A stretch of DNA of 64,000 bases. Origin: a phage. Both the position numbers and the translations under genes were made by a program. Shown here piece after piece: positions 1 to 21,539 of the stretch. Numbering within the stretch: the first letter of the stretch is position 1; every line of letters starts with the position of its first letter. The notes under the pieces were generated by a model. The model was not told where the DNA came from. It saw only the letters and a program-made list of their open reading frames with translations, and did no database searches. Location of the stretch: sequence record PZ445134.1; one strand, given 5' to 3'.

Positions 1-654
1 ATGAGTATAATCACCAACTTCTACACCACATTCGTTAGCTATATAATGAAGTAATTTTCCTTGGAGATAAAAATCCAACTGCATAACAACAGCACAGTTC
101 TGAGAACGCATATGACAGTGGGTATAAAGCTTACCATCACGAATATAATAAGTCACTGAGTCAGTACATGGATATTCAAGTGTTTCGTCTGAATCAAGCA
201 AAGCCTGATCAGAACTTTCTAGAATTTGGAACACAACTCTTCGAGAGTTAGGTTTTTCTTTAAGTTCTTTTAGAAGAGTTGGTAACTGGGCCGCAATTCG
301 TGGACCGTAGAAAGTGTTGAAGTTTGCAGGCAAAGCATCTGATTTAGGTTTAGAAATAAATTTAGCGACGTTAGGATATGCCTTAAATGCTTCTTCTGCA
401 TCAGTACCACCAGAAATCATAAATTTCCAGAAATCTTCAGCATATTCATAAGAGATGCGATTAATACGTGGGTCGGTCATTTTGAATGATGAAGGGGTAT
501 CAACAACTACTGTCATAGACCCAATTTCATTACAACGTCCAATACGAGAATCAGTAACGAATTCCGGGTTTTCTAAAATTTCACGATTGACAGCTTTAAA
601 TGCGGATTGAAAATCTGCGGCTTTAATATATTTCATTGTGTTATGTTTTCCCAT
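1..654 (-). CDS. 42: dCMP hydroxymethylase-like (thymidylate-synthase family), 3' end beyond window edge
   Basis: ATG at 654..652 with GAGGT Shine-Dalgarno 4 nt upstream; hand translation MGKHNTMKYIKAADFQ... contains TS-family motifs PNSRR and YPCTDS (catalytic Cys context); sits where gene 42 lies relative to gene 43 in T4. ORF runs off position 1. Confidence 0.6.
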   Translation of the reverse strand, partial: MGKHNTMKYIKAADFQSAFKAVNREILENPEFVTDSRIGRCNEIGSMTVVVDTPSSFKMTDPRINRISYEYAEDFWKFMISGGTDAEEAFKAYPNVAKFISKPKSDALPANFNTFYGPRIAAQLPTLLKELKEKPNSRRVVFQILESSDQALLDSDETLEYPCTDSVTYYIRDGKLYTHCHMRSQNCAVVMQLDFYLQGKLLHYIANECGVEVGDYTH

Positions 655-787
655 GTTTACCTCAATACAGTTATTATATACTCAATTCATAAAGCTTATT
701 TGAATTTCTTAGCGATGTTGATATAACGTAGAGCTTCGGCATCGATACTTCCAAGGACGCTATGAAGGAACGCGTCGACATAGTATT

Positions 788-937
788 CTAGTTGAACAGG
801 TTCTCTTTAATCACTTTAGCCGCTTTAGTTTCAAACAGGCCCATAAGGGCCTTTTTAAGAATTTGTTCGTTGTTGTTAATTTTAATAGTCAAAATCTCTT
901 CGTTAAGTTGGTGGTTAAAAGTTTTTCTAGAAATCAT
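788..937 (-). CDS. small hypothetical protein (~49 aa), coordinates approximate
   Basis: ATG overlaps stop of upstream 386-aa gene (ATGA coupling); below ORF-track size cut-off; contains GGCCC-ATAA-GGGCC hairpin internally. Confidence 0.3.
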   Translation of the reverse strand: MISRKTFNHQLNEEILTIKINNNEQILKKALMGLFETKAAKVIKENLFN

Positions 938-2094
938 TCTGGGTACCTCAAAGCGTCATCAGAGTTAGTTATATCAATAATAGATATAGAGTTTTCCGAT
1001 AACCCATTTTTAGATAACTGACGTTTATAATATCTTTCACAATATGTACACGTCGTCCCACAGATTTCATTAGCACAATCGAAATCTGGATGTTTGAACC
1101 ACCTTTTTTCTAAAAAGCCATCTAACAAAGAGGTTTCAATATTTACCGTATGTGAAAACTCAGTCTCATTTTCAAGAGTGAAAATGGTCTCTAAAGGCTT
1201 CCACAATTCCAACAAATTACCTTCAAATTTTTCAGAAGCATAAGCTTCAAGAACTTTCAAAATGTAGTCTGTGCTACCTGTACGTCCTGAAACTTTGAAT
1301 TGAGTGATACCAATATCATTATAAAGTTTCAAATCTTGAGGACGAACAAAACGAGTTCTCAACCAGTTAAATGGATCTGTATCACGAGCTTTAATACAGT
1401 GCTGCATTGGATATCCATTTAAGGATTTGGCATCATCTACTGTAACATCAGTGCTATGGAAAATATAGCAAGAGTCACGATAACTACAATGTGTTGTATA
1501 CCCTTTACCAGCATTAGAACAGAACTCATTTACAAGAACTTCAAATATTATATTGTTCTTATTACAAAACTCTGCTGCACGCTTCAGGAAAGAAACTGAA
1601 CGGTTCTTATGAATTCCACAGCAGACCTTTTTGATATTATATTGGTCATGCAAGTATTTGATTTGAGTTACAGCATCGACATGTAGAATTGTTGAAACTT
1701 CAATCTCAATGTCTTTATTGACTTCACGAACAATTTCCATAACAACAGGGTTAGCGATAGTAATACGCCAAACGCCTATTGACCAAAGATACTGAACATA
1801 ATCCTGAATAGCTTTCTTCTTCCACTCAACTAGTTCTCTTTTTGAACCAGGATTTATCGTGTTGAGTGTACAGTTAAAGCAAATACCTAATTCGTTACAA
1901 CGTTTAACGTAATCTTCTAACATCTTTTTGTCAACGTCAGGAAGCCTAAAATCAGGTCTGGCTGCTACAAAAGCCATTTCTCTTGTAGAGCCGTATACTT
2001 CGTTTATCAAGCTATTAGGATAAGTTTTATTGAGCTCTACGATTTTATCAAGAAGAGCTAAATCAAAATTCGTTCCGATTTTAAAGGTATTCAT
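934..2094 (-). CDS. Cys-rich 386-aa protein of unknown function; candidate hmC-sugar transferase or Fe-S enzyme
   Basis: ORF track; ATG at 2094; C-terminal cluster CANEICGTTCTYC (C-x4-C-x3-C-x-Y-C) plus internal Cys-rich stretch EFCSNAGKGYTTHCSYRDSC; weak resemblance to U32-family TIM-barrel proteins; last gene of the sugar cassette. Confidence 0.7.
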   Translation of the reverse strand: MNTFKIGTNFDLALLDKIVELNKTYPNSLINEVYGSTREMAFVAARPDFRLPDVDKKMLEDYVKRCNELGICFNCTLNTINPGSKRELVEWKKKAIQDYVQYLWSIGVWRITIANPVVMEIVREVNKDIEIEVSTILHVDAVTQIKYLHDQYNIKKVCCGIHKNRSVSFLKRAAEFCNKNNIIFEVLVNEFCSNAGKGYTTHCSYRDSCYIFHSTDVTVDDAKSLNGYPMQHCIKARDTDPFNWLRTRFVRPQDLKLYNDIGITQFKVSGRTGSTDYILKVLEAYASEKFEGNLLELWKPLETIFTLENETEFSHTVNIETSLLDGFLEKRWFKHPDFDCANEICGTTCTYCERYYKRQLSKNGLSENSISIIDITNSDDALRYPE

Positions 2095-2148
2095 TTTTGC
2101 ATCTCGCGTTAATTGTTGCGATGGTTTTTGCAGGTCTTACTTAAATTA

Positions 2149-2535
2149 TTATAGATTCGGTTTATATGATTTAAATGTTTCGAATTCGCCTTTATTCATA
2201 AGAGCTTTGAATTCGTCAGGACGCATAGCTTTGTCGTCGATAATCCAATCATATACTGGTTTATGTGTTAGCAAATTATGGTACTTCAATCCAATGTTTG
2301 CCAAGTTCTGAATCAGACTTGGGAGAATGTCAATTGCTATACGACCAGGACCGACTGACTTCATACCACGAGCAGTGTAAAGCGTTATGGTATGCCCTGC
2401 ATCATACAGGGCATTAATGGCAGACACCATTTCGACGTCTGGTTTGAAGTTCACGTAATCACGATTGTTATTCCACTCTGTTATACAATCATCGACATCA
2501 AAACAAAGATTAAGCATGTTTTCTACACGGTGCAT
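2149..2535 (-). CDS. HAD-superfamily phosphatase (putative sugar-phosphate phosphatase)
   Basis: HAD motif I FDVDDCIT near N-terminus, motif II TLYTAR, distal DD; start taken at ATG 2535 overlapping upstream stop (TAATG); ORF-track start 2550 is the alternative. Confidence 0.6.
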   Translation of the reverse strand: MHRVENMLNLCFDVDDCITEWNNNRDYVNFKPDVEMVSAINALYDAGHTITLYTARGMKSVGPGRIAIDILPSLIQNLANIGLKYHNLLTHKPVYDWIIDDKAMRPDEFKALMNKGEFETFKSYKPNL

Positions 2536-4220
2536 TAGATTCGTTCCCATTGATGAGTGATATCGCCACCGATTGGACGATAGGAAACACCAGTTTCTTT
2601 ATCAGTTAGTACCCATTTACCAGGATTTTTTGTAATCAGAGTAGCCGTTACAGGTTCTGCTACGTCATAACTAATAGAGCCGTCCTGAAGTACACGGCCC
2701 ATGTTACGTAATTGCTTAGTCAGAAGTTCCATACCTTTATAATATGCGGCTACCGCTTTAAGTGGATTATTCTTGAAATAACCACCTAATGCAATCCAGA
2801 TAATTGCCACTGCCAAATGATGATACTCGTTAAACGAACTCATCTTTCCATATTTGTAAACTAATGGATTGATGTTAATAGTCACATTACAAGTTGTTTC
2901 ATCAATAGTAAACTGTCCCCAGGTCGGATTAGCGTTGAATTCATCATACCCTGAAACAGCATAAAGCACTTTAGCTTCGTCATACAATTTTGGTCCGTAA
3001 ATCTTGGTTTCGCCAAAATATCCACGAGGGTCGATAAACTTGACTTCGCCGTTATCAGTAATCATAGTATTACTGAAGTTCGGGTCACCATGAATAACAG
3101 AGTACTGTCCCTGAGAACGGTTATGATAACGAATAAGGTGTTCTAAAGCTTGTTTCAACATTGGCTTCAGACGTCCGATCTTAGTGTAGTTCACATGTGT
3201 GATTTTACCAAATGAATCAATCAATGGTTGAATACTTTCACAACGATCAATAACTTTCGTATAGAATTCTTTAGTGAAATCACGACGAACAGTTTCAGGA
3301 CTTACAAAATAAGTGTCTGTGCTGAATTTCAGTGCGTCTAAAATTGCATCAACAATTTGTGGACGAGCAAGACTCGATTTGGATTTAATATATTCAAATG
3401 CCGGCTTACCTTTAATGCGTTCCATTTCAAAGTTATTTTCATTAACAGAAACTAACTGAGGAACTGAATCTGATTTCACTTTAAGATACCATGAAATCTC
3501 ATCTTTCTGAAGAGCTCGGCCCTGTTCGGTTAATGCGAATTTAGTTACAGTTTCTTCACCAATTTCAACGGCATTAAAACTACGATTAAGTTCACGAACT
3601 TCATGAGCTTTTTCAAGTTTAGGCATATCACCTAAATCAATTAGATTCATAAGCTCTGATTTATTGAATGCGCTGCCGTAAAGGAATTCTACGAAATCAC
3701 GTCCTTTGCAGTATTCATGAATTTCCTCATCAGTAGAACCCATATAGAATTCCCAGTCTTTGAACTGATAAATTCCTACAACATTACCACCTGTTGAACC
3801 TACGTTAGTGATATTTTCACCGTCGAAATTATATCGACATTCGTCGCCCTTAACATAGATTGCGTTAACATTCCAAGACCACGAACCAAAATCAGGAATA
3901 ATATCGCACCAGTTAACAATTACATTATGGCCGTCTAAATCTTTGTGTAATTTAGCAAGAGCATAAGCAGAACCGTACGCTTCATCAACTGTACGAATAG
4001 TCACATTGAACCCTTCTTGCTCACAATAAGCTCGAACAGTTTCAGCAAATTTTGAATGAACTACTACAATAATTTCATCTGCGCCAAGGTCAGAATAAAT
4101 TGTATACAAATTGCTCAGAATAGTGTCTTGTTTATAGTTAACAAGCACCTTAGGAATATGATGCGTTATTGGATACAAACGAGTTGCCAGTCCAGCACCA
4201 AGAATAACAGCTTTTTTCAT
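2535..4220 (-). CDS. bifunctional sugar-1-phosphate nucleotidyltransferase / protein-kinase-like sugar kinase
   Basis: N-terminus KAVILGAGLATRLYPIT matches RmlA/GlmU-type G-x-G-T-R-L-x-P-x-T motif; C-terminal HGDPNFSNTMI...FIDPRG matches APH/choline-kinase catalytic loop (HGDxxxxN) as in anomeric sugar kinases; ATG with GAGGA SD. Confidence 0.8.
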   Translation of the reverse strand: MKKAVILGAGLATRLYPITHHIPKVLVNYKQDTILSNLYTIYSDLGADEIIVVVHSKFAETVRAYCEQEGFNVTIRTVDEAYGSAYALAKLHKDLDGHNVIVNWCDIIPDFGSWSWNVNAIYVKGDECRYNFDGENITNVGSTGGNVVGIYQFKDWEFYMGSTDEEIHEYCKGRDFVEFLYGSAFNKSELMNLIDLGDMPKLEKAHEVRELNRSFNAVEIGEETVTKFALTEQGRALQKDEISWYLKVKSDSVPQLVSVNENNFEMERIKGKPAFEYIKSKSSLARPQIVDAILDALKFSTDTYFVSPETVRRDFTKEFYTKVIDRCESIQPLIDSFGKITHVNYTKIGRLKPMLKQALEHLIRYHNRSQGQYSVIHGDPNFSNTMITDNGEVKFIDPRGYFGETKIYGPKLYDEAKVLYAVSGYDEFNANPTWGQFTIDETTCNVTININPLVYKYGKMSSFNEYHHLAVAIIWIALGGYFKNNPLKAVAAYYKGMELLTKQLRNMGRVLQDGSISYDVAEPVTATLITKNPGKWVLTDKETGVSYRPIGGDITHQWERI

Positions 4221-4261
4221 GTTGTGGTCCTCATTGGTAAGTAGGAGTATTGTACACTATT

Positions 4262-4405
4262 CTAGTTAAAGCATTCATACTTTGCTTGTAGTCCAATCAT
4301 AATCCATCCGATTATAAGAGTCGGAATCATTACTGGAGCCGTTAAGCTCCAGTAGATAGTCATGACAAGCATCAATAGTAAAAGTCCTATTGTTATTGCT
4401 TTCAT
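4262..4405 (-). CDS. small hydrophobic membrane peptide (~47 aa), coordinates approximate
   Basis: Hand translation MKAITIGLLLLMLVMTIYWSLTAPVMIPTLIIGWIMIGLQAKYECFN; ATG overlaps stop of SIS gene (ATGA); occupies the position of imm in T4. Confidence 0.4.
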   Translation of the reverse strand: MKAITIGLLLLMLVMTIYWSLTAPVMIPTLIIGWIMIGLQAKYECFN

Positions 4406-5037
4406 TGTTCGCCTCGTAACATGGCACCTAGTGCACCGCCAGGGTGGAACTTAAGGAAGTCATTAGAGGTAAATCCACGTTCAGACGAAAGGTTGATAGC
4501 AAACGTATCGATAAGCGCTAACAACAATGTAGTGGACATAGTCGGAGCTAGAGAATTCTCATCAACCTCTACTGCGATGCCTGTACAGAACGTATAATCA
4601 AAAAGAGCTTCGTATTCTTGTGGAATGTCTGGGTTACAATGCAACAGAATCTGTTTGACGTTCGGACGAATCATTTTAAGATGCTTAGCCACGCCTATCA
4701 TTTCTTCAGTTTTACCGGAACGACTAATATGAATCAACACATCATTAGGCGCAATGAATCCTGCATCACCGTGAGAATAATGCCCAGTGTTCAAGTACAT
4801 ACTCGGGATACCGAGTGAAGCAAATGTCTCAGAAGCTTTAGTTGCAATATTAGCATTCTTACCAACACCTGTAATAATTACTCTGCTTTCATAATTACTA
4901 AGTCCCGGGCGTCGAAGAGTTTCTAGAATAGCATTATAACGAGCAGGGTTTTGACTAATTACTTTGGCCATAGCGGCCAAAGAAGAAGCTTGTTTTATGA
5001 TTGCGTCAATAGCGATAGTAATAGGAGTAGTTTTCAT
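4402..5037 (-). CDS. arabinose-5-phosphate isomerase, SIS domain only (KdsD/GutQ/KpsF family)
   Basis: VIITGVGKNANIATKASETFASLGIP and C-terminal SLAPTMSTT...FLKFHPGGALG align with my recall of E. coli KdsD SIS domain (VVVSGIGKSGHIG..., ...SHPAGALG); no CBS domains. Confidence 0.8.
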   Translation of the reverse strand: MKTTPITIAIDAIIKQASSLAAMAKVISQNPARYNAILETLRRPGLSNYESRVIITGVGKNANIATKASETFASLGIPSMYLNTGHYSHGDAGFIAPNDVLIHISRSGKTEEMIGVAKHLKMIRPNVKQILLHCNPDIPQEYEALFDYTFCTGIAVEVDENSLAPTMSTTLLLALIDTFAINLSSERGFTSNDFLKFHPGGALGAMLRGEQ

Positions 5038-5077: not shown

Positions 5078-7789
5078 TCAAAAATCGAACATATCGAAAA
5101 GAGATGCTTTCTTCTCGTAATCGAGTTTCGCTGCTGATGTGAATCCTTCAAGTGGTTTAATAAATGTCTTCTCAAGGAGAACAGTGTAGTCCATCCAATG
5201 AAGTACGTCGTCTTTAATTAAATCTGTGATTTCAGTACCGGAAGGCCATGCGATACATTTATCACCGAATGGGTTTCCTTCACGTAAAGGCAGAACATAT
5301 ACTTTTTCACCTTCTACAACTTGCGGTGCATCGATATTACCTTTGATAGCACGGTTATACGTCAGAATTCCACGAATATGGAATGGGCATTTGGGACCAG
5401 GGAATCCACCTACATCATATTTAGCAATGTTATTCGCAGAAGATACTGACGCGATGCTAATATAATTCAATTGACGGAATTCTTTTTCAAACTCTTTAAA
5501 ATATTCTTGTAATGATTCTTCACCTTCTTGAAGCATACGACGAATACATTCTTTAAGAGCTTTCTGTACTGCTTTAGGAGTCGAAGATTTCTGAGTCTCT
5601 AGACCCATGATTTTGAGTTTAGGCTCAGCGTAACGAGTACCTTCCATATCCCACACGTTTAATGCATAACGTTTCTTACCAGTCCAGAATCCACCAATAC
5701 CTTTAGAACCGAGTGGAGGCCCAGCGATAGCTTCTCGGTCCATGAACATTAAGTGTTGTTTATTGTTCATGTATTCACACATTTCACGGAAACCTCTATC
5801 AATAGCTGGTTCCATACGTTCACGTGCAAACTTATCTAAGAAGTCTACCCAATGGTTGGTATCACGGAATTTAGATTCACCAACCTTATCGATAATTTTA
5901 TCAGCAGATACGTAAATAGAGTCTGTATCACCATAAAGAACGAAAGCTTCACCTTCTGTGCCACAAACTTCATTCAGATATTCATTAACTTTACGTTCAA
6001 TCCACTGTAAAGCCATTTGCCCGAATGTTGTGATTGCAGTAGCATTACGCAAATCGTAATAACGGAACCAAACGTTGCCAAGTGCACCATAAAGTGAGTT
6101 GATAAGCAATTTACGGTTAATTTGGGCAGTCATACCTGCAACTTCAGTACGTTGAGCTCTAAACAACATTTCATTAAGAGATTTAGCAGACAACTTTTTA
6201 ATCTTTTCTTTAATCTCATCGCTGAAGTCGAAACGATAATCAACATCTAATGGTCCGTCAACAGAAAGATTAGGATTATGCAATGCCTCTTTAATTATTT
6301 CACCATTACGTTGAGCCGCAAGCATGTAACCTTTATGTTCTTTACGTTGATTAAAGACTTTAGTGATTTCAGTTGGAACAACACCGTCACGGTCTTTATA
6401 ATACATCATGCCGTTAGGAGAACAACTGTACACATCTGAAGGACGTTCAGCAACAGCGTTAATATAATCATGCAATGGAGCTACTTTAAACGTTCCTGCT
6501 ATTGTTTCTGGGCTAATATTCACTTGGCGAATAATACTTGGATACAGAGATGTAAGGTCGAAACTCATTACGTATTTGTATCGATTTGGAATAGGTTCCT
6601 TAACAAAAGCGCCGGGATAAGGTTGAACCGGGTGAGAACGACCTTGTGGAATCACCTTGTTCTGCTCTTTAAGGCTATTAAAAATAATAGCATCCCATGT
6701 TTTAATTGGGCTAAACACAGATTGAATCTGTATCTTAGCATAATAACCCATGTCCAAGCTCAAGTTAATGAACTGACGTTTAGCATCAATTTGCAATACA
6801 CGATACACGTCGATAATGTTATAAGAAATATATCGTTGGTGATTGCTTTCACGAAGCTTAGAAATAGGGCCGTCATATTTCAGTTTACCAACGTTCAATT
6901 CAAATTCTGAAATGTAATCCAGAGAATATGACGGTTGATTGGTAAAAGAGAATTTTTTGTAAAGGTCAATGTAATCAAGAACAGAGATACCGAACAATGT
7001 AATGATTTCACGAGAACCATACATGTTTTCGATAACTTTAACACGAGTTTTACGATGTGGTGATAAACGTTTCGCAGTAGATTCGCCAAAAATATTCTTG
7101 ATTCGGTTATACACATATGGAATATCAAATGACTCAACGTTCCATCCAGTCAAAATGACAGGAGTTTTCTGTTGCCAGAAGTTGAGATATTCCATCAACA
7201 ATTCTTTTTCGTTATCGAACGGCATATAAATGATTTTATCGATAATTTCGGATGGGACTTCATCACCGCCTTGTTCTTGAAGCTTAGCCGCAATTTCGAT
7301 AGACCATTCTTCCACATTCCCGTATGGAGAATTCAAAAGGTCAAATACGTAGAACCTGTCGTCAATTGAGTCATAATGAGTGATAGCATCAATCGGATGT
7401 TTTGCTTGTGACGGCTCAGGGAACCCGTCTGGAGATGTTACTTCGATGTCGAAGTTAGCCACACGAATTTTTGTATGGTCGTATTTGATTTCATAGTTAT
7501 AAGTGTCAGACAAATACGCCAATTTGAAATCGTCCATGCCAAGTGCTTCAAGTCCGATATCTTCCATGCGTTTAATCCATTGGGAGGCATCACGCATATT
7601 GGCGAACAACTTACGAGTACACGGCTTACCGTAGATATCGAAATATTTCGTAGCCTGACTTTCCGGACAATGAGCAAACAGTGATGGTTTATATTCTACT
7701 TCACGAGTACGTTCACGGCCGTTAGAATCGATGTAACGTTCAAAAATTGAATCACCAATCTGTTCAACCGTTAAGTAAAATTCTTTCAT
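5078..7789 (-). CDS. 43: DNA polymerase (family B), gp43
   Basis: 903 aa; MKEFYLTVEQIGDSIFERYIDSNGRERTREVEY..., exo motif FDIEV, pol motifs SLYPS, YGDTDS, KxxxNSLYG; matches my recall of RB69 gp43. Confidence 0.97.
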   Translation of the reverse strand: MKEFYLTVEQIGDSIFERYIDSNGRERTREVEYKPSLFAHCPESQATKYFDIYGKPCTRKLFANMRDASQWIKRMEDIGLEALGMDDFKLAYLSDTYNYEIKYDHTKIRVANFDIEVTSPDGFPEPSQAKHPIDAITHYDSIDDRFYVFDLLNSPYGNVEEWSIEIAAKLQEQGGDEVPSEIIDKIIYMPFDNEKELLMEYLNFWQQKTPVILTGWNVESFDIPYVYNRIKNIFGESTAKRLSPHRKTRVKVIENMYGSREIITLFGISVLDYIDLYKKFSFTNQPSYSLDYISEFELNVGKLKYDGPISKLRESNHQRYISYNIIDVYRVLQIDAKRQFINLSLDMGYYAKIQIQSVFSPIKTWDAIIFNSLKEQNKVIPQGRSHPVQPYPGAFVKEPIPNRYKYVMSFDLTSLYPSIIRQVNISPETIAGTFKVAPLHDYINAVAERPSDVYSCSPNGMMYYKDRDGVVPTEITKVFNQRKEHKGYMLAAQRNGEIIKEALHNPNLSVDGPLDVDYRFDFSDEIKEKIKKLSAKSLNEMLFRAQRTEVAGMTAQINRKLLINSLYGALGNVWFRYYDLRNATAITTFGQMALQWIERKVNEYLNEVCGTEGEAFVLYGDTDSIYVSADKIIDKVGESKFRDTNHWVDFLDKFARERMEPAIDRGFREMCEYMNNKQHLMFMDREAIAGPPLGSKGIGGFWTGKKRYALNVWDMEGTRYAEPKLKIMGLETQKSSTPKAVQKALKECIRRMLQEGEESLQEYFKEFEKEFRQLNYISIASVSSANNIAKYDVGGFPGPKCPFHIRGILTYNRAIKGNIDAPQVVEGEKVYVLPLREGNPFGDKCIAWPSGTEITDLIKDDVLHWMDYTVLLEKTFIKPLEGFTSAAKLDYEKKASLFDMFDF

Positions 7790-18752: not shown

Positions 18753-19223
18753 TTAATCATGTTTCCACACCCCGTCGGTATTTGTCCAAAGTCGCTGATT
18801 ATCTGATCCTCGCCACAGTTTTTTGGTCGGAAGATTTTTCTCATACTTCCCATCAATAATAACATCAACATATTTAAGCATTTCTAGTTGTTTAATATCT
18901 TCAAACTTATATCCTGTCCACAACCAAATGCTTTTATTGGGATAAAGTTTTTTTACTGTTTGAACAATGCAATGAACAACATCTTGGTTATCAGGATAGA
19001 GAGGGTCTCCTCCAGTTATAGTTAATCCTTCTATATAATCGTTATTCAAACATTCAATTAATTGTTCCAGCGTTTCACCGGTGAATGGGATACCATTTCT
19101 AGCGTTCCATGTTGATTTATTATAACACCCCTCGCATTTATGCAAACAACCTGTAACGAAAAGAACGACCCTGCAACCGGGGCCATTCACAAAATCGCAA
19201 GGATAAAATCTATCATAATTCAT
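18753..19223 (-). CDS. nrdG: anaerobic ribonucleotide reductase activating protein NrdG (radical SAM)
   Basis: 156 aa; CLHKCEGC (Cx3Cx2C) near N-terminus; start overlaps nrdD stop. Confidence 0.9.
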   Translation of the reverse strand: MNYDRFYPCDFVNGPGCRVVLFVTGCLHKCEGCYNKSTWNARNGIPFTGETLEQLIECLNNDYIEGLTITGGDPLYPDNQDVVHCIVQTVKKLYPNKSIWLWTGYKFEDIKQLEMLKYVDVIIDGKYEKNLPTKKLWRGSDNQRLWTNTDGVWKHD

Positions 19224-20518
19224 TGGTGTTTAACCCTATGCATGATTTCTTTATTTTTGCCGAGATTAAATCCGCGTTCGTTCGGATTTCCAAGATAACC
19301 GCATGTTCTTCTTATTGTGTTCATCTTTTTAGGATCAGTTTCTCCGCAAACTGAACAAACAAATCCGTTTTCAGTAGGAGTCATTTCATGAGTACTTCCA
19401 CATGTAAAACATTTATCTACTGGCATATTAACACCAAAATAATCTAAATGTTGTGCAGCATAATCCCATACAGCCTCAAGACCTTTTAGGTTATTTTTCA
19501 TATCAGGAAGTTCAACATAAGAAATGTGACCACCAGTCGCAATGAAATGATATGGCGCTTCACGAGAAATCTTTTCAAACGGAGTAATATTTTCTTCTAC
19601 TGAAACGTGGAAACTATTAGTGTACCAGCCTTTATCAGTAACATCTTTTACACTTCCATATTTTTCGGTATCAAGTTTACAGAAGCGATAGCACAGGTTT
19701 TCAGCAGGAGTAGAATACAAGCTAAAAGCAAAACCGGTTCTTTCAGTCCACTGCTTAAGACGAGCATTCATTTTAGTCAAAATTTCCTGTCCAATATCAC
19801 GTCCGACAAGAATATTCAATTCGTGAATACCAATGTATCCTAAAGACACTGAACTTCTGCCGTTTTTAAATAACTCAATTATATCATCATCAGGTTTAAG
19901 ACGAACCCCAAATGCACCTTCTTGGTAAAGAATAGGAGCAACAGTAGCTTTAACTCCTTTTAAGGAACTAATTCTACACATCAAAGCTTCAAAACACAGA
20001 TCCATTCGTTCATTAAATAGCTCAACAAATTTCTGTTCATTGAATTGTGTTCCAATATAAGAATCTAACGCAATACGAGGAAGATTCAGTGTTACAACAC
20101 CAAGATTATTACGCCCATCAAGAATTTCATTACCAGTCGAATCTTTCCATACGCTCAAAAAACTACGGCAACCCATTGGAGAAACAGGAACAGATGAACC
20201 GGTGATAGCTTTATTATTCTTAACTGAAATAATATCAGGATACATTCTTTTGCTTGCACATTCTAACGCAAGCTGCTTAATATCATAGTTCGGGTCGTCT
20301 TTATAAAGATTAACACCCTCTTCAACGAACATAACAAGTTTAGGGAAAATAGGAGTTATCCCATCGCGACCAAGACCTTTAATACGATTTTTCAGAATTG
20401 CTTTCTGAATCATTCGTTCAGTCCAGTCAGTTCCCGTGCCAAATGTAATGGTTACAAAAGGCGTTTGTCCGTTTGAACTGAAAAGTGTATTTACTTCATC
20501 ATTATATTCAGCATGAGT
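19220..20518 (-). CDS. nrdD: anaerobic ribonucleoside-triphosphate reductase NrdD, exon 2
   Basis: C-terminal glycyl-radical motif RTCGYLG and Zn-ribbon CxxC pairs; 5' boundary is the inferred 3' splice site (approximate). Confidence 0.8.
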   Translation of the reverse strand, partial: THAEYNDEVNTLFSSNGQTPFVTITFGTGTDWTERMIQKAILKNRIKGLGRDGITPIFPKLVMFVEEGVNLYKDDPNYDIKQLALECASKRMYPDIISVKNNKAITGSSVPVSPMGCRSFLSVWKDSTGNEILDGRNNLGVVTLNLPRIALDSYIGTQFNEQKFVELFNERMDLCFEALMCRISSLKGVKATVAPILYQEGAFGVRLKPDDDIIELFKNGRSSVSLGYIGIHELNILVGRDIGQEILTKMNARLKQWTERTGFAFSLYSTPAENLCYRFCKLDTEKYGSVKDVTDKGWYTNSFHVSVEENITPFEKISREAPYHFIATGGHISYVELPDMKNNLKGLEAVWDYAAQHLDYFGVNMPVDKCFTCGSTHEMTPTENGFVCSVCGETDPKKMNTIRRTCGYLGNPNERGFNLGKNKEIMHRVKHQ

Positions 20519-21539
20519 CGCAAATTCATGCCCGTTTATATGAAACAACAAAATTTGGATAGTCCATAGATATGCAACGTTCTTTTATAGTGCTAGGATG
20601 AAAATTTAGCGCTTTAGCTGCTTCTATATAAGACGTATACTTAATACCGTCAACAACCACATATTCAGGAACTTTATGAATAGTAGTCTTAATACTCAAA
20701 ACAAGAGGATGAGTTTCGACTTCACTTTCAGTGCAATTTAAATATTCCGCTGCTTTTTTAAAACTTCTAAAAGTTTTATTTTTAAGCTTTATCGATACTT
20801 GTTTTTTACTTTTTCGACTATTGATATTATTTTGCACATGTTCCTTAGATCTTCTGTTTTTAGCATAATATTCAGCCACAGAAGATTTTATATTGTTTTT
20901 ATGAGATTCGGATAACACTTTACCCTTATGAGCATCTCTTAATTTTTGAATATGTTCTTCAGTATCCGGATGCTTATAAAACTTTTTACCGCCTATGGAT
21001 TTATTTAAACATTTTTTGCTATAAAAATATTTACGTATGACCTCTTCTTCATGTTTTAATGCATCTTTATAACTATCAAATGTTTTTAAAATTATCCATT
21101 TAGTAGGTGTATCAGTTTTTAAGCGTTCATTTATATACTTAGATGACGTTGTGTAAGTTTTCCAGTTTGTGGGCTTGTTTTTAATTGTTCTAAATTTTTT
21201 ATAACCGATATAAATGTCGCCATTAGAAAACTTAACTAAGTATGTAAATGCGTCTTTATCTTTTATTTTAGTACAACGTCTTTTTATCCATTTCATTGTT
21301 TCACCTCGTATTCATAAGATAATCTTATTTATACAAGATGACTGCTGCATGTCGCCATGCAGATTAGACTATATCTTCATCTTTCGATGCCGGCCGTTTC
21401 GAATAGCATTAGCTTCTATTCTACACCGCTACATTCATCACGGTTAGTCGTTAGGCATTTAGTTCAAAAGAACATTTAGCACGGGATTGTCTACTAGAGA
21501 GGTTCCCCGTTTAGACCGGTTTTACATGAGCCTGAATTA
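20519..21539 (-). mobile_element. group I self-splicing intron (T4 sunY/nrdD-type), boundaries approximate
   Basis: Minus-strand core elements in order: P-like UAAACGGGGAACC, Q-like AAUCCCGUGC, R-like AACGACUAA, S-like AAGAUAUAGUCU, and CUGCAUG-GCGA-CAUGCAG hairpin; in-frame UAA at intron start; ORF in 3' part. Confidence 0.7.
20526..21296 (-). CDS. intron-encoded GIY-YIG homing endonuclease (I-TevII-like)
   Basis: 256 aa; N-terminal FTYLVKFSNGDIYIGYKK GIY-YIG motif; NUMOD-like repeats and basic C-terminal DNA-binding region. Confidence 0.8.
   Translation of the reverse strand: MKWIKRRCTKIKDKDAFTYLVKFSNGDIYIGYKKFRTIKNKPTNWKTYTTSSKYINERLKTDTPTKWIILKTFDSYKDALKHEEEVIRKYFYSKKCLNKSIGGKKFYKHPDTEEHIQKLRDAHKGKVLSESHKNNIKSSVAEYYAKNRRSKEHVQNNINSRKSKKQVSIKLKNKTFRSFKKAAEYLNCTESEVETHPLVLSIKTTIHKVPEYVVVDGIKYTSYIEAAKALNFHPSTIKERCISMDYPNFVVSYKRA

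Follow-up and report, generated by a model that had tools for sequence, protein, structure and literature searches.

Gene arrangement and origin of the stretch

The stretch of phage DNA analysed here (64,000 nucleotides (nt) of sequence record PZ445134.1; called the window below) carries a cassette of genes for the activation of arabinose and, among them, a gene for a Cys-rich protein of the U32 family. The cassette lies between the DNA polymerase gene 43 and a thymidylate synthase (TS) family gene, which is the positional equivalent of T4 gene 42. A sequence-only reading of the window had placed four co-oriented, tightly coupled genes beside gene 43. Indeed, all four open reading frames (ORFs) are present on the minus strand and have the coordinates that were assigned to them. 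They encode a SIS protein (4402..5037, 211 amino acids), which is the ortholog of RB69 gp55, a fused nucleotidyltransferase/kinase (NT/kinase; 2535..4220, 561 amino acids; ortholog of AfhE and RB69 gp52:53), a HAD phosphatase (2149..2535, 128 amino acids; ortholog of AfhF and RB69 gp51) and the Cys-rich U32 protein (934..2094, 386 amino acids with 14 Cys residues; ortholog of RB69 gp50). The longest ORF of the HAD gene begins at position 2550. The earlier list lacked two small ORFs of the cassette (4262-4405, 47 amino acids; 788-937, 49 amino acids). The TS-family gene (1..654, minus strand), the ortholog of the RB69 gp48 gene, is truncated by the left edge of the window and comprises codons 1-218 of 238. 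On the other side, gene 43 (5078..7789, minus strand) is a flanking landmark outside the pathway. The tight coupling is visible in three overlapping junctions, in which the stop codons of the SIS, NT/kinase and U32 genes overlap the starts of the 47-amino-acid ORF, the HAD gene and the next small ORF, respectively. The remaining intergenic gaps of the cassette measure 40-54 nt. A scan for sigma-70 promoters and terminators between positions 600 and 5300 revealed no enrichment over shuffled sequences.

By megablast, the 5.1-kb stretch that contains the cassette is 99.4% identical to Escherichia phage AV112. Moreover, 152 phage records, all of the Mosigvirus (RB69-like) type, contain it with 95% identity or more, and the gene arrangement is therefore no chance product. 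The encoded proteins share 99% identity with RB69 gp48, gp50, gp51, gp52:53, gp55 and gp56 and 97-100% identity with the cluster of phage HY126. The DNA polymerase gp43 is 99.9% identical to RB69p056 and 61.7% identical to T4 gp43. Judging from these identities, the source phage is a Mosigvirus. Between gene 43 and the TS homolog, the window has the gene content and gene order of the RB69/HY126 pathway for arabinosyl-5-hydroxycytosine, and its TS homolog bears the D169N signature of that pathway. There is no functional difference between the systems; only the frame of the small ORF that follows the U32 gene differs among RB69, HY126, 308Ecol101PP and the window. In the RB69 reference record, two genes are split by sequencing errors, which do not occur in the window, and in the HY126 GenBank record nearly all genes of the cluster are labelled 'hypothetical protein'. 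We are highly confident that the stretch is the sugar-activation half of an RB69/HY126-type arabinosyl-5-hydroxycytosine cluster and that the cluster and its three sugar enzymes are correctly identified. The window is cut within the TS gene and the glycosyltransferases of the cluster are not visible in it, two points against this identification that we do not count as substantive. The cassette has been described since 2018 and is already known; no new system is added here.

Enzymes for the activation of arabinose

The SIS protein is recognised by the Pfam SIS profile (1.7e-10) and by the NCBIfam profiles for KpsF/GutQ (2.2e-32) and KdsD (1.2e-30), of which it covers only positions 47-202 of the 328 positions of the KdsD profile. 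The tandem CBS domains of the KdsD/GutQ type are lacking. The protein matches the PDB entries 3ETN (5.5e-25) and 2XHZ ('arabinose 5-phosphate isomerase'; 6.5e-19); the known isomerases that it resembles, 3ETN and 5UQI, are SIS-only as well. With RB69p055, it shares 99% identity. We predict that it is an SIS-only D-arabinose-5-phosphate isomerase, similar to the known isomerases of this type and not a full-length KdsD. The isomerase function has also been given as a prediction by Lee et al. (PMC13326640).

In the NT/kinase, residues 3-99 match the NTP_transferase profile (8.5e-10) and residues 344-409 show weak matches to kinase families; the C-terminal half is kinase-like and contains the motifs HGDPNFSN and DPRG. 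Its identity to RB69p053 and p052, the two parts of a single gene split by a sequencing error (Thomas et al., PMC6024577), is 99.5-99.7%. The HAD phosphatase matches TIGR01689 for capsule-biosynthesis HAD phosphatases (3.8e-13), carries a DVDDC motif and aligns over its full length with the HY126 phosphatase in PDB entry 9IQW (1.8e-87). Gene 43 and the TS homolog enclose the genes for the SIS protein, AfhE and AfhF, which all have the same orientation and whose products are 100%, 97.0% and 100% identical to those of HY126. Thus, by profile matches and by identity to HY126, the sugar-nucleotide module for activated arabinose that the sequence-only reading had proposed is borne out.

The route through this module turned out to be a different one from the earlier proposal, which went via free arabinose. 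According to the account of the work of He et al. in PMC13326640, HY126 AfhE phosphorylates arabinose-5-phosphate (Ara5P) to the 1,5-bisphosphate, AfhF strips the 5-phosphate and AfhE then forms UDP-arabinofuranose. The same paper reports that these two enzymes were all that was used to prepare UDP-arabinose from Ara5P. Reconstitution of the pathway has been achieved for HY126, and crystal structures exist for two of its enzymes (PDB 9IQC, 9IQW). In the window phage, the predicted isomerase would convert ribulose-5-phosphate to Ara5P, the kinase half of the bifunctional enzyme would form arabinose-1,5-bisphosphate, the HAD phosphatase would release arabinose-1-phosphate and the nucleotidyltransferase domain would convert the latter to UDP-arabinofuranose. 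The carrier nucleotide is UDP. Arabinose on RB69 DNA was found in 2018, when ORF055c and ORF53_52c were proposed as UDP-arabinose enzymes (Thomas et al., PMC6024577); these two correspond to the SIS and the fusion protein of the window.

The hydrophobic 47-amino-acid peptide between the SIS and NT/kinase genes (4262..4405, minus strand) has no Pfam match. It is 97% identical to its homolog RB69p054 over 36 amino acids and 100% identical to the HY126 peptide. An ORF of the same size lies at this position in Serratia phage LC53, where it is annotated as a transmembrane segment.

The modified base and its synthase

The product of the TS-family gene matches the Pfam profile Thymidylat_synt (4e-10) and is 99.1% identical to RB69p048 and 25.8% identical to T4 gp42. 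Its signature reads MRSQNCAVVMQLD, compared to MRSNDVVFGFRND in T4 gp42. The protein has MRSQN...D where T4 gp42 has MRSND, which equals D169N and N177D in E. coli ThyA numbering. Thus, it carries Asn at the position of ThyA Asp169 and Asp at that of Asn177, and it lacks the Asp at position 169 of the gp42-type dCMP hydroxymethylases. The structure of the HY126 ortholog has been solved (PDB 9IQC/9IR2/9IQU; match E=1.7e-163). RB69 gp48 binds flavin and synthesises 5-hydroxy-dCMP in an O2-dependent manner; the Asp169-to-Asn exchange serves as its marker, and in vivo expression also demonstrated the formation of 5-hydroxycytosine by this enzyme (PMC13326640). By mass spectrometry (MS), nuclear magnetic resonance (NMR) and 18O2 labelling, the RB69 base was identified as 5-hydroxycytosine with arabinose ether-linked at C5 (Lee et al. 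2026, PMC13326640). Virion DNA in which mono/di-arabinosyl-5-hydroxydeoxycytidine replaces deoxycytidine is known from RB69 (PMC13326640) and from Mosigvirus NP (PMC13390438). Judging from the 99% identity to gp48 and the MRSQN signature, the adjacent 'gene 42' is a flavin/O2-dependent 5-hydroxy-dCMP synthase and not the dCMP hydroxymethylase for which it had been taken. Likewise, of the arabinosyl modification of 5-hydroxymethylcytosine (hmC) that had been suggested for this phage, the arabinose stands and the base does not, which would be 5-hydroxycytosine in view of the near-identical RB69/HY126 proteins (PMC13326640).

The view that the cassette yields a nucleoside diphosphate arabinose via free arabinose, for transfer onto hmC made by a gene-42-type dCMP hydroxymethylase, corresponds to the 2018 interpretation for RB69 (PMC6024577). 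It agrees with the membership of the neighbouring gene in the thymidylate synthase family and with the phosphatase-first order that still appears in Table 1 of PMC13326640. We consider it very improbable. The text of the latter paper adopts the kinase-first order from the HY126 biochemistry, the spectroscopic, labelling and in vivo data on RB69 gp48 have already refuted the hmC reading for RB69 and the earlier hmC assignment has been termed erroneous in the 2026 Mosigvirus NP paper (PMC13390438). Moreover, the window protein sides with gp48 and not with T4 gp42, both in overall identity and in the Asn at the Asp169 position.

A tblastn search of the 64-kb window uncovered no homolog of the T4 alpha-gt, the T4 beta-gt or the Mosigvirus arabinosyltransferase-1; the sole glucosyltransferase match comprises 16 residues (E=0.53) and is due to chance. 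The absence of alpha-gt and beta-gt from the window, which the sequence-only reading had noted, is thereby confirmed. For RB69, gp46:47 and gp3 have been proposed as the transferases (PMC13326640). A gene for a homolog of the RB69 arabinosyltransferase-1 (GT1) directly follows the TS gene in the close relatives that were examined and in 15/15 of the T4-like viral loci described below. We predict that the transferases of the window phage are encoded outside the window, with the gp46:47 homolog just to the left and the gp3 homolog near rIIA, and that they would put one or two arabinoses on 5-hydroxycytosine.

The system shares its neighbourhood (uvsX ... 42 ... 43) and its logic with the glucosyl-hmC system of T4: a TS-family enzyme forms a hydroxylated dCMP, a kinase feeds it into DNA and glycosyltransferases decorate it. 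However, the base is 5-hydroxymethylcytosine in T4 and 5-hydroxycytosine here, the hydroxylase uses folate in T4 and O2 and flavin here, and the sugar comes from UDP-glucose of the host in T4, whereas arabinofuranose is provided by a phage-made UDP-sugar. Furthermore, T4 has alpha-gt and beta-gt, of which the window holds no homologs, and it carries imm and imm.1 at the position of the cassette, which agrees with the earlier remark on imm.

A U32 protein beside an oxygen-dependent synthase

The TS-type enzyme needs O2, and these phages infect gut bacteria and carry the anaerobic ribonucleotide reductase NrdD/NrdG; therefore, the U32 protein was examined as an anaerobic route to the base. In the window, the reductase genes occupy positions 18753-20551 (NrdG, 18753-19223; NrdD ORF, 19220-20551). 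The match of the NrdD ORF to the Pfam NRDD profile is confined to positions 145-562, and the ORF is directly preceded by an ORF for a GIY-YIG/NUMOD1 homing endonuclease (20526-21296, minus strand); nrdD appears to be interrupted or split by the mobile endonuclease gene.

The Cys-rich protein matches the Pfam profile Peptidase_U32 (PF01136) with 6.3e-11 (42.4 bits compared to a gathering cutoff of 22.4). Its AlphaFold model (pLDDT 90.5, pTM 0.90) adopts the U32 fold; the best PDB match is the U32 protein 5D88 (TM 0.69 on target) and the other matches are generic TIM barrels. A sequence search of the PDB gave no match. Ten Cys residues are invariant across 26 homologs that are 46-85% identical (C158, C177, C192, C203, C209, C233, C340, C345, C349 and C352). 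When the protein is aligned with the four E. coli paralogs, its residues C192 and C209 coincide with the essential residues C169 and C176 of RlhA; the local match is SCYIFHS versus QCYISHA, and a 10-residue insert bearing C203 lies between them. Thus, by alignment alone, the phage protein possesses the two essential Cys residues of the U32 motif. In addition, it has an invariant C-terminal cluster, C340-X4-C345-X3-C349-X2-C352 (CX4CX3CX2C). The phage U32 protein is probably an Fe-S protein. In phages of Klebsiella, Proteus, Yersinia and Shewanella, it is 82-89% identical, compared to 42-73% for the NT/kinase and 76-82% for the TS homolog, which suggests that the U32 gene is either under unusually strong constraint or has been exchanged recently.

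The family name and the 'peptidase' annotation in many phage records would make the protein a true collagenase-like peptidase without relation to DNA modification. This is hardly credible given the ten invariant Cys residues and the nucleotide-metabolism genes that surround the U32 gene in every lineage examined. Moreover, the characterised U32 members have been re-assigned as Fe-S hydroxylation factors (PMC5727448, PMC6747719, PMC10990095). RlhA is required for 5-hydroxycytidine 2501 of the 23S rRNA (PMC5727448), TrhP for 5-hydroxyuridine in tRNA (PMC6599085) and UbiU/UbiV for the anaerobic hydroxylations in ubiquinone synthesis (PMC6747719, PMC10990095). All of them are Fe-S dependent, O2-independent and prephenate-dependent (PMC5727448, PMC6599085, PMC6747719, PMC10990095), and for UbiU/V it has been shown that prephenate is the oxygen donor (PMC10990095).

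The phage protein has in common with RlhA, TrhP, UbiU and UbiV the Pfam U32 domain, the TIM-barrel-like fold, the conserved Cys pair and, presumably, the dependence on prephenate. RlhA yields 5-hydroxycytidine, the ribo-analogue of the phage base, and the pairs TrhP/TrhO and UbiUV/UbiIHF are precedents for paired anaerobic and aerobic routes. In contrast to the E. coli factors, to which it is about 20% identical or less, the phage protein has another Cys spacing, the extra C-terminal cluster and neither a DUF3656 nor other accessory domains, and its presumed substrate would be a deoxynucleotide or DNA instead of RNA or a quinone.

On genomic grounds, we propose that the U32 protein may be a prephenate-dependent, O2-independent pyrimidine C5 hydroxylase, a proposal whose chances of being right or wrong we hold to be evenly balanced. 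In the absence of O2, the Fe-S hydroxylase would stand in for the O2-dependent TS-type enzyme and make the 5-hydroxypyrimidine nucleotide; E. coli has comparable anaerobic partners of O2-dependent enzymes in TrhP (with TrhO) and UbiU/V (with UbiI/H/F). In that case, phages whose hosts are facultative anaerobes would possess two non-homologous routes to 5-hydroxycytosine, a TS-type route with O2 and flavin and a U32-type route with prephenate. Lee et al. list RB69 gp50 only in Table 1, as a 'sugar or heterocycle reductase' and without discussion; their Discussion mentions U32-based RNA hydroxylation and does not note the phage U32 protein (PMC13326640). Searches of the available literature, with He et al. 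2026 and Mahler et al. 2025 outside its scope, turned up neither this proposal nor any other treatment of U32, chorismate mutase or an anaerobic route in the present context.

Prephenate-pathway genes next to U32

In Serratia phage LC53 and Enterobacter phage Entb_45, a gene for a type II chorismate mutase (Pfam CM_2, 1.7e-11 and 2.4e-10) lies between the U32 gene and the TS homolog, and the start of the mutase gene overlaps the U32 stop codon. The phage chorismate mutase occurs in 51 phage records, and every genus represented there is also found among the U32-bearing records. Wherever the flanking annotation is informative, the mutase gene has U32 and the TS homolog as neighbours. The U32-mutase pair is relocated beyond the glycosyltransferase and kinase genes in Shewanella phage Thanatos-1, with its two members still together. 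In distant metagenomic phages with U32 proteins of 49-55% identity, a DAHP synthase gene adjoins U32; in one of the contigs (L009), the enzyme matches TIGR01361 with 5e-64 and 216 bits versus 63 bits for KDO8P synthase, and a second contig (L040) is similar. Furthermore, the neighbour of U32 in four other contigs encodes a DAHP synthase that ends in a chorismate mutase domain. Thus, three independent architectures place a prephenate-pathway enzyme beside the U32 clade, and some U32 phages would raise the supply of prephenate by their own chorismate mutase or DAHP synthase. The Mosigviruses would depend on PheA/TyrA of the host for prephenate.

The small ORF that follows the U32 gene (696..937, minus strand), a homolog of RB69p049, was considered as a degenerate chorismate mutase and this idea was rejected: it has no Pfam CM_2 match and a profile of six phage mutases finds nothing anywhere in the window (best E=0.18). 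RB69p049-type ORFs are homologous to small ORFs between the U32 and chorismate mutase genes of PM2 and TG1 (E ~1e-13). In the window, the ORF is frameshifted. Relative to RB69, it has a 2-nt insertion at about 801-802, so that 49 codons (788-937) are left in the first frame; the conserved C-terminal part is open in another frame as far as a TAA at about 696. The site is an indel-variable tract, ATTAAAG[--/A-/AG]AACC, at which RB69 is in frame (79 amino acids), 308Ecol101PP has +1, the window has +2 and HY126 has +1 plus an extra T upstream. As a result, the conserved C-terminal part YY.DAF.HS..G.I..E..R.IN..K, which PM2 and TG1 also have, is out of frame in 3/4 near-identical phages. The variation could reflect a decaying gene, a slippage-prone site or sequencing errors.

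Distribution of U32 genes among phages

For a survey of the U32 neighbourhoods, 41 U32-bearing viral contigs, 15 T4-like and 26 distant ones, were scanned with profiles of the cluster proteins over about 10 kb on either side; the contig counts are not phylogenetically independent. The TS-type hydroxylase is encoded nearby in 15/15 T4-like and 0/26 distant contigs, one of the latter having a canonical ThyA (QRSGD...FN). A chorismate mutase was found in 13/15 T4-like contigs, whereas the distant ones have 0/26 stand-alone mutases and four fusions to DAHP synthase. The other genes of the cluster are present in both groups: GT1 in 15/15 and 16/26, the Tmk-like kinase in 15/15 and 14/26, the NT/kinase in 15/15 and 10/26 and SIS in 11/15 and 9/26 contigs of the T4-like and the distant group, respectively. 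In the distant contigs with GT1 or the Tmk-like kinase, U32 is collinear with these genes. A collection-wide scan for the TS-type hydroxylase returned 46 contigs, which include all 15 T4-like U32 contigs, none of the 26 distant ones and 31 contigs without U32. The loci that bear a transferase have one of the two candidate hydroxylases beside it. Six distant contigs have only the kinase, GT1 and U32, encoded by overlapping genes with no arabinose-pathway genes nearby. At other distant loci, U32 follows a dCMP deaminase gene or lies beside genes for a dUTPase, a TAGT-like transferase or a UDP-galactopyranose mutase. For DNA with a glycosylated 5-hydroxypyrimidine, numerous uncultivated phages of low GC content would have no other route than that of U32. 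The U32 protein may represent a clade of phage pyrimidine C5 hydroxylases that depend on prephenate, need no O2 and act on deoxynucleotides, namely dCMP in the window phage and possibly dUMP beside dCMP deaminase genes; judged by gene neighbourhood, this is about as probable as its opposite.

Three of the distant settings deserve a description of their own. In a 61-kb Logan contig of a metagenomic phage (L016:6777-15179), genes for Gly_transf_sug, a Tmk-like kinase, a GT1 homolog, U32, a TAGT-like transferase, dUTPase/DCD and UDP-galactopyranose mutase follow one another in this order. This phage is a candidate for another glycosylated 5-hydroxypyrimidine, perhaps with galactofuranose, and has no TS-type hydroxylase gene nearby. 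In megaphage-like contigs with PolIII-alpha, one of them 466 kb long, U32 directly follows the dCMP deaminase gene (L006:7447-9086, L019:8279-9858, L062:9522-11107), which hints at dUMP, converted to 5-hydroxy-dU, as the substrate rather than dCMP. Finally, an ENA and a Logan contig (L007 and L008; U32 at L007:8001-9098) look bacterial, with dockerin and glycoside hydrolase genes. There, two U32 paralogs flank genes for an NT5C 5'-nucleotidase, an NMN transporter, a deoxynucleoside kinase, a radical SAM/SPASM protein and a nucleoside deoxyribosyltransferase. The locus may be a cellular or prophage nucleoside-modification island.

Phages of Acinetobacter, an obligate aerobe, have the arabinosylation genes in 57 GenBank records with a TS gene and 57 with an NT/kinase gene. 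Every U32 match in GenBank phages was at least 80% identical and none came from Acinetobacter. The DLP3/AM101-type cluster of these phages resembles that of the window in its collinear genes for SIS, NT/kinase, HAD phosphatase, TS-type hydroxylase, glycosyltransferases and Tmk-like kinase. However, it contains neither U32 nor chorismate mutase, and in phage AM101 the HAD gene directly abuts the TS gene. Additional glycosyltransferases of this cluster lead to tri-arabinosylation (PMC13326640). As a control for host distribution, NrdD was considered: Acinetobacter is not among its top-10 organisms, the tenth of which has 41 records, a ranking that gives no exact counts.

Some E. coli phages also lack U32. 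In the Dhakavirus Bp7 (L014, 5062-10151), imm is kept by gene 43 and genes for the NT/kinase, HAD phosphatase, Tmk-like kinase, TS homolog of the MRSQN type and glycosyltransferases are present, with no recognisable SIS isomerase and no U32. The Dhakaviruses presumably draw Ara5P from KdsD/GutQ of the host.

Weighing the roles of the U32 protein

The U32 protein had been included among the proteins for sugar activation. As an accessory enzyme of sugar metabolism, it could be a reductase, as the label 'sugar or heterocycle reductase' in Table 1 of PMC13326640 says, or catalyse an arabinose-tailoring step. Its gene lies between the HAD phosphatase and the base-modifying genes and is collinear with the SIS and NT/kinase genes in the distant contigs that have them, and in phage AlbertHofmann the protein is annotated as 'putative enzyme involved in UDP-arabinose biosynthesis'. 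We nevertheless regard a sugar role as unlikely. The account in PMC13326640 credits AfhE and AfhF, and no further protein, with the formation of UDP-arabinose from Ara5P, and DLP3 makes tri-arabinosylated DNA (PMC13326640). Moreover, the arabinose genes occur without U32 in Acinetobacter phages and Dhakaviruses, and, conversely, U32 occurs with the kinase and the transferase but without SIS or NT/kinase genes in the six distant contigs. A sugar role also leaves the linkage to chorismate mutase and DAHP synthase unexplained. Since two enzymes suffice and phages without U32 arabinosylate, we infer that the U32 protein stands outside sugar activation, in disagreement with the sequence-only reading.

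Alternatively, the U32 protein could be a prephenate-dependent hydroxylase of phage or host RNA that tunes translation, by forming 5-hydroxyuridine 34 in tRNA or 5-hydroxycytidine in rRNA. T4-like phages encode tRNAs, which counts in favour of an RNA substrate, and the chorismate mutase linkage fits an RNA hydroxylase equally well. Both characterised U32 enzymes related to nucleic acids act on RNA (PMC5727448, PMC6599085). However, in most T4-like loci U32 immediately precedes the TS-type hydroxylase gene; in Thanatos, it is paired with chorismate mutase and comes after the kinase gene. In distant phages it lies beside genes for homologs of deoxynucleoside monophosphate kinases and DNA glycosyltransferases, dCMP deaminase or dUTPase. 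Furthermore, its distribution is complementary to that of the TS-type dCMP hydroxylase. We consider hydroxylation of RNA quite improbable, more so than a sugar role.

Several points speak against a pyrimidine C5 hydroxylase as well. The canonical CX6CX15CX3/4C pattern is not kept in the phage protein, which has C192-X10-C203-X5-C209-X23-C233 instead; UbiU and UbiV likewise depart from the canonical pattern (PMC6747719). BLAST comparisons of the protein with RlhA (E=0.1), TrhP, UbiU and UbiV were insignificant, and in vitro hydroxylation has not yet been shown for any U32 protein (PMC10990095). In the Mosigviruses, including the 64-kb window, a chorismate mutase is absent by the search with the six-mutase profile. 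U32 is absent from E. coli Dhakaviruses (Bp7, for example), which do have the TS pathway, although their host is a facultative anaerobe; U32 is therefore accessory and not obligatory. The distant contigs with U32 beside NT/kinase (10/26) and SIS (9/26) fit a sugar role. Finally, the TS scan used two peptide motifs and the distant loci were covered to about 10 kb on either side, which leaves room for a divergent hydroxylase elsewhere.

Implications

The cassette was re-discovered from raw sequence and its pathway has been published between 2018 and 2026; a hypermodification module was thus recognisable to a reader of the sequence. What remains of value is U32, the one gene that the literature leaves unexplained, and with it the question of how the base is made without oxygen by phages whose 5-hydroxy-dCMP synthase needs O2, whose hosts are gut Enterobacterales and which carry genes for an anaerobic ribonucleotide reductase. 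If the U32 protein is indeed a prephenate-dependent pyrimidine hydroxylase, it would provide the U32 hydroxylase family with its first deoxynucleotide or DNA-related substrate, and prephenate would gain a new role as an oxygen donor. The presence of chorismate mutase and DAHP synthase genes in phages would be explained as well. Moreover, U32 would be a marker for glycosylated 5-hydroxypyrimidine DNA in phages that infect anaerobes, which would be relevant to the evasion of restriction and CRISPR, to phage therapy and to phage engineering.

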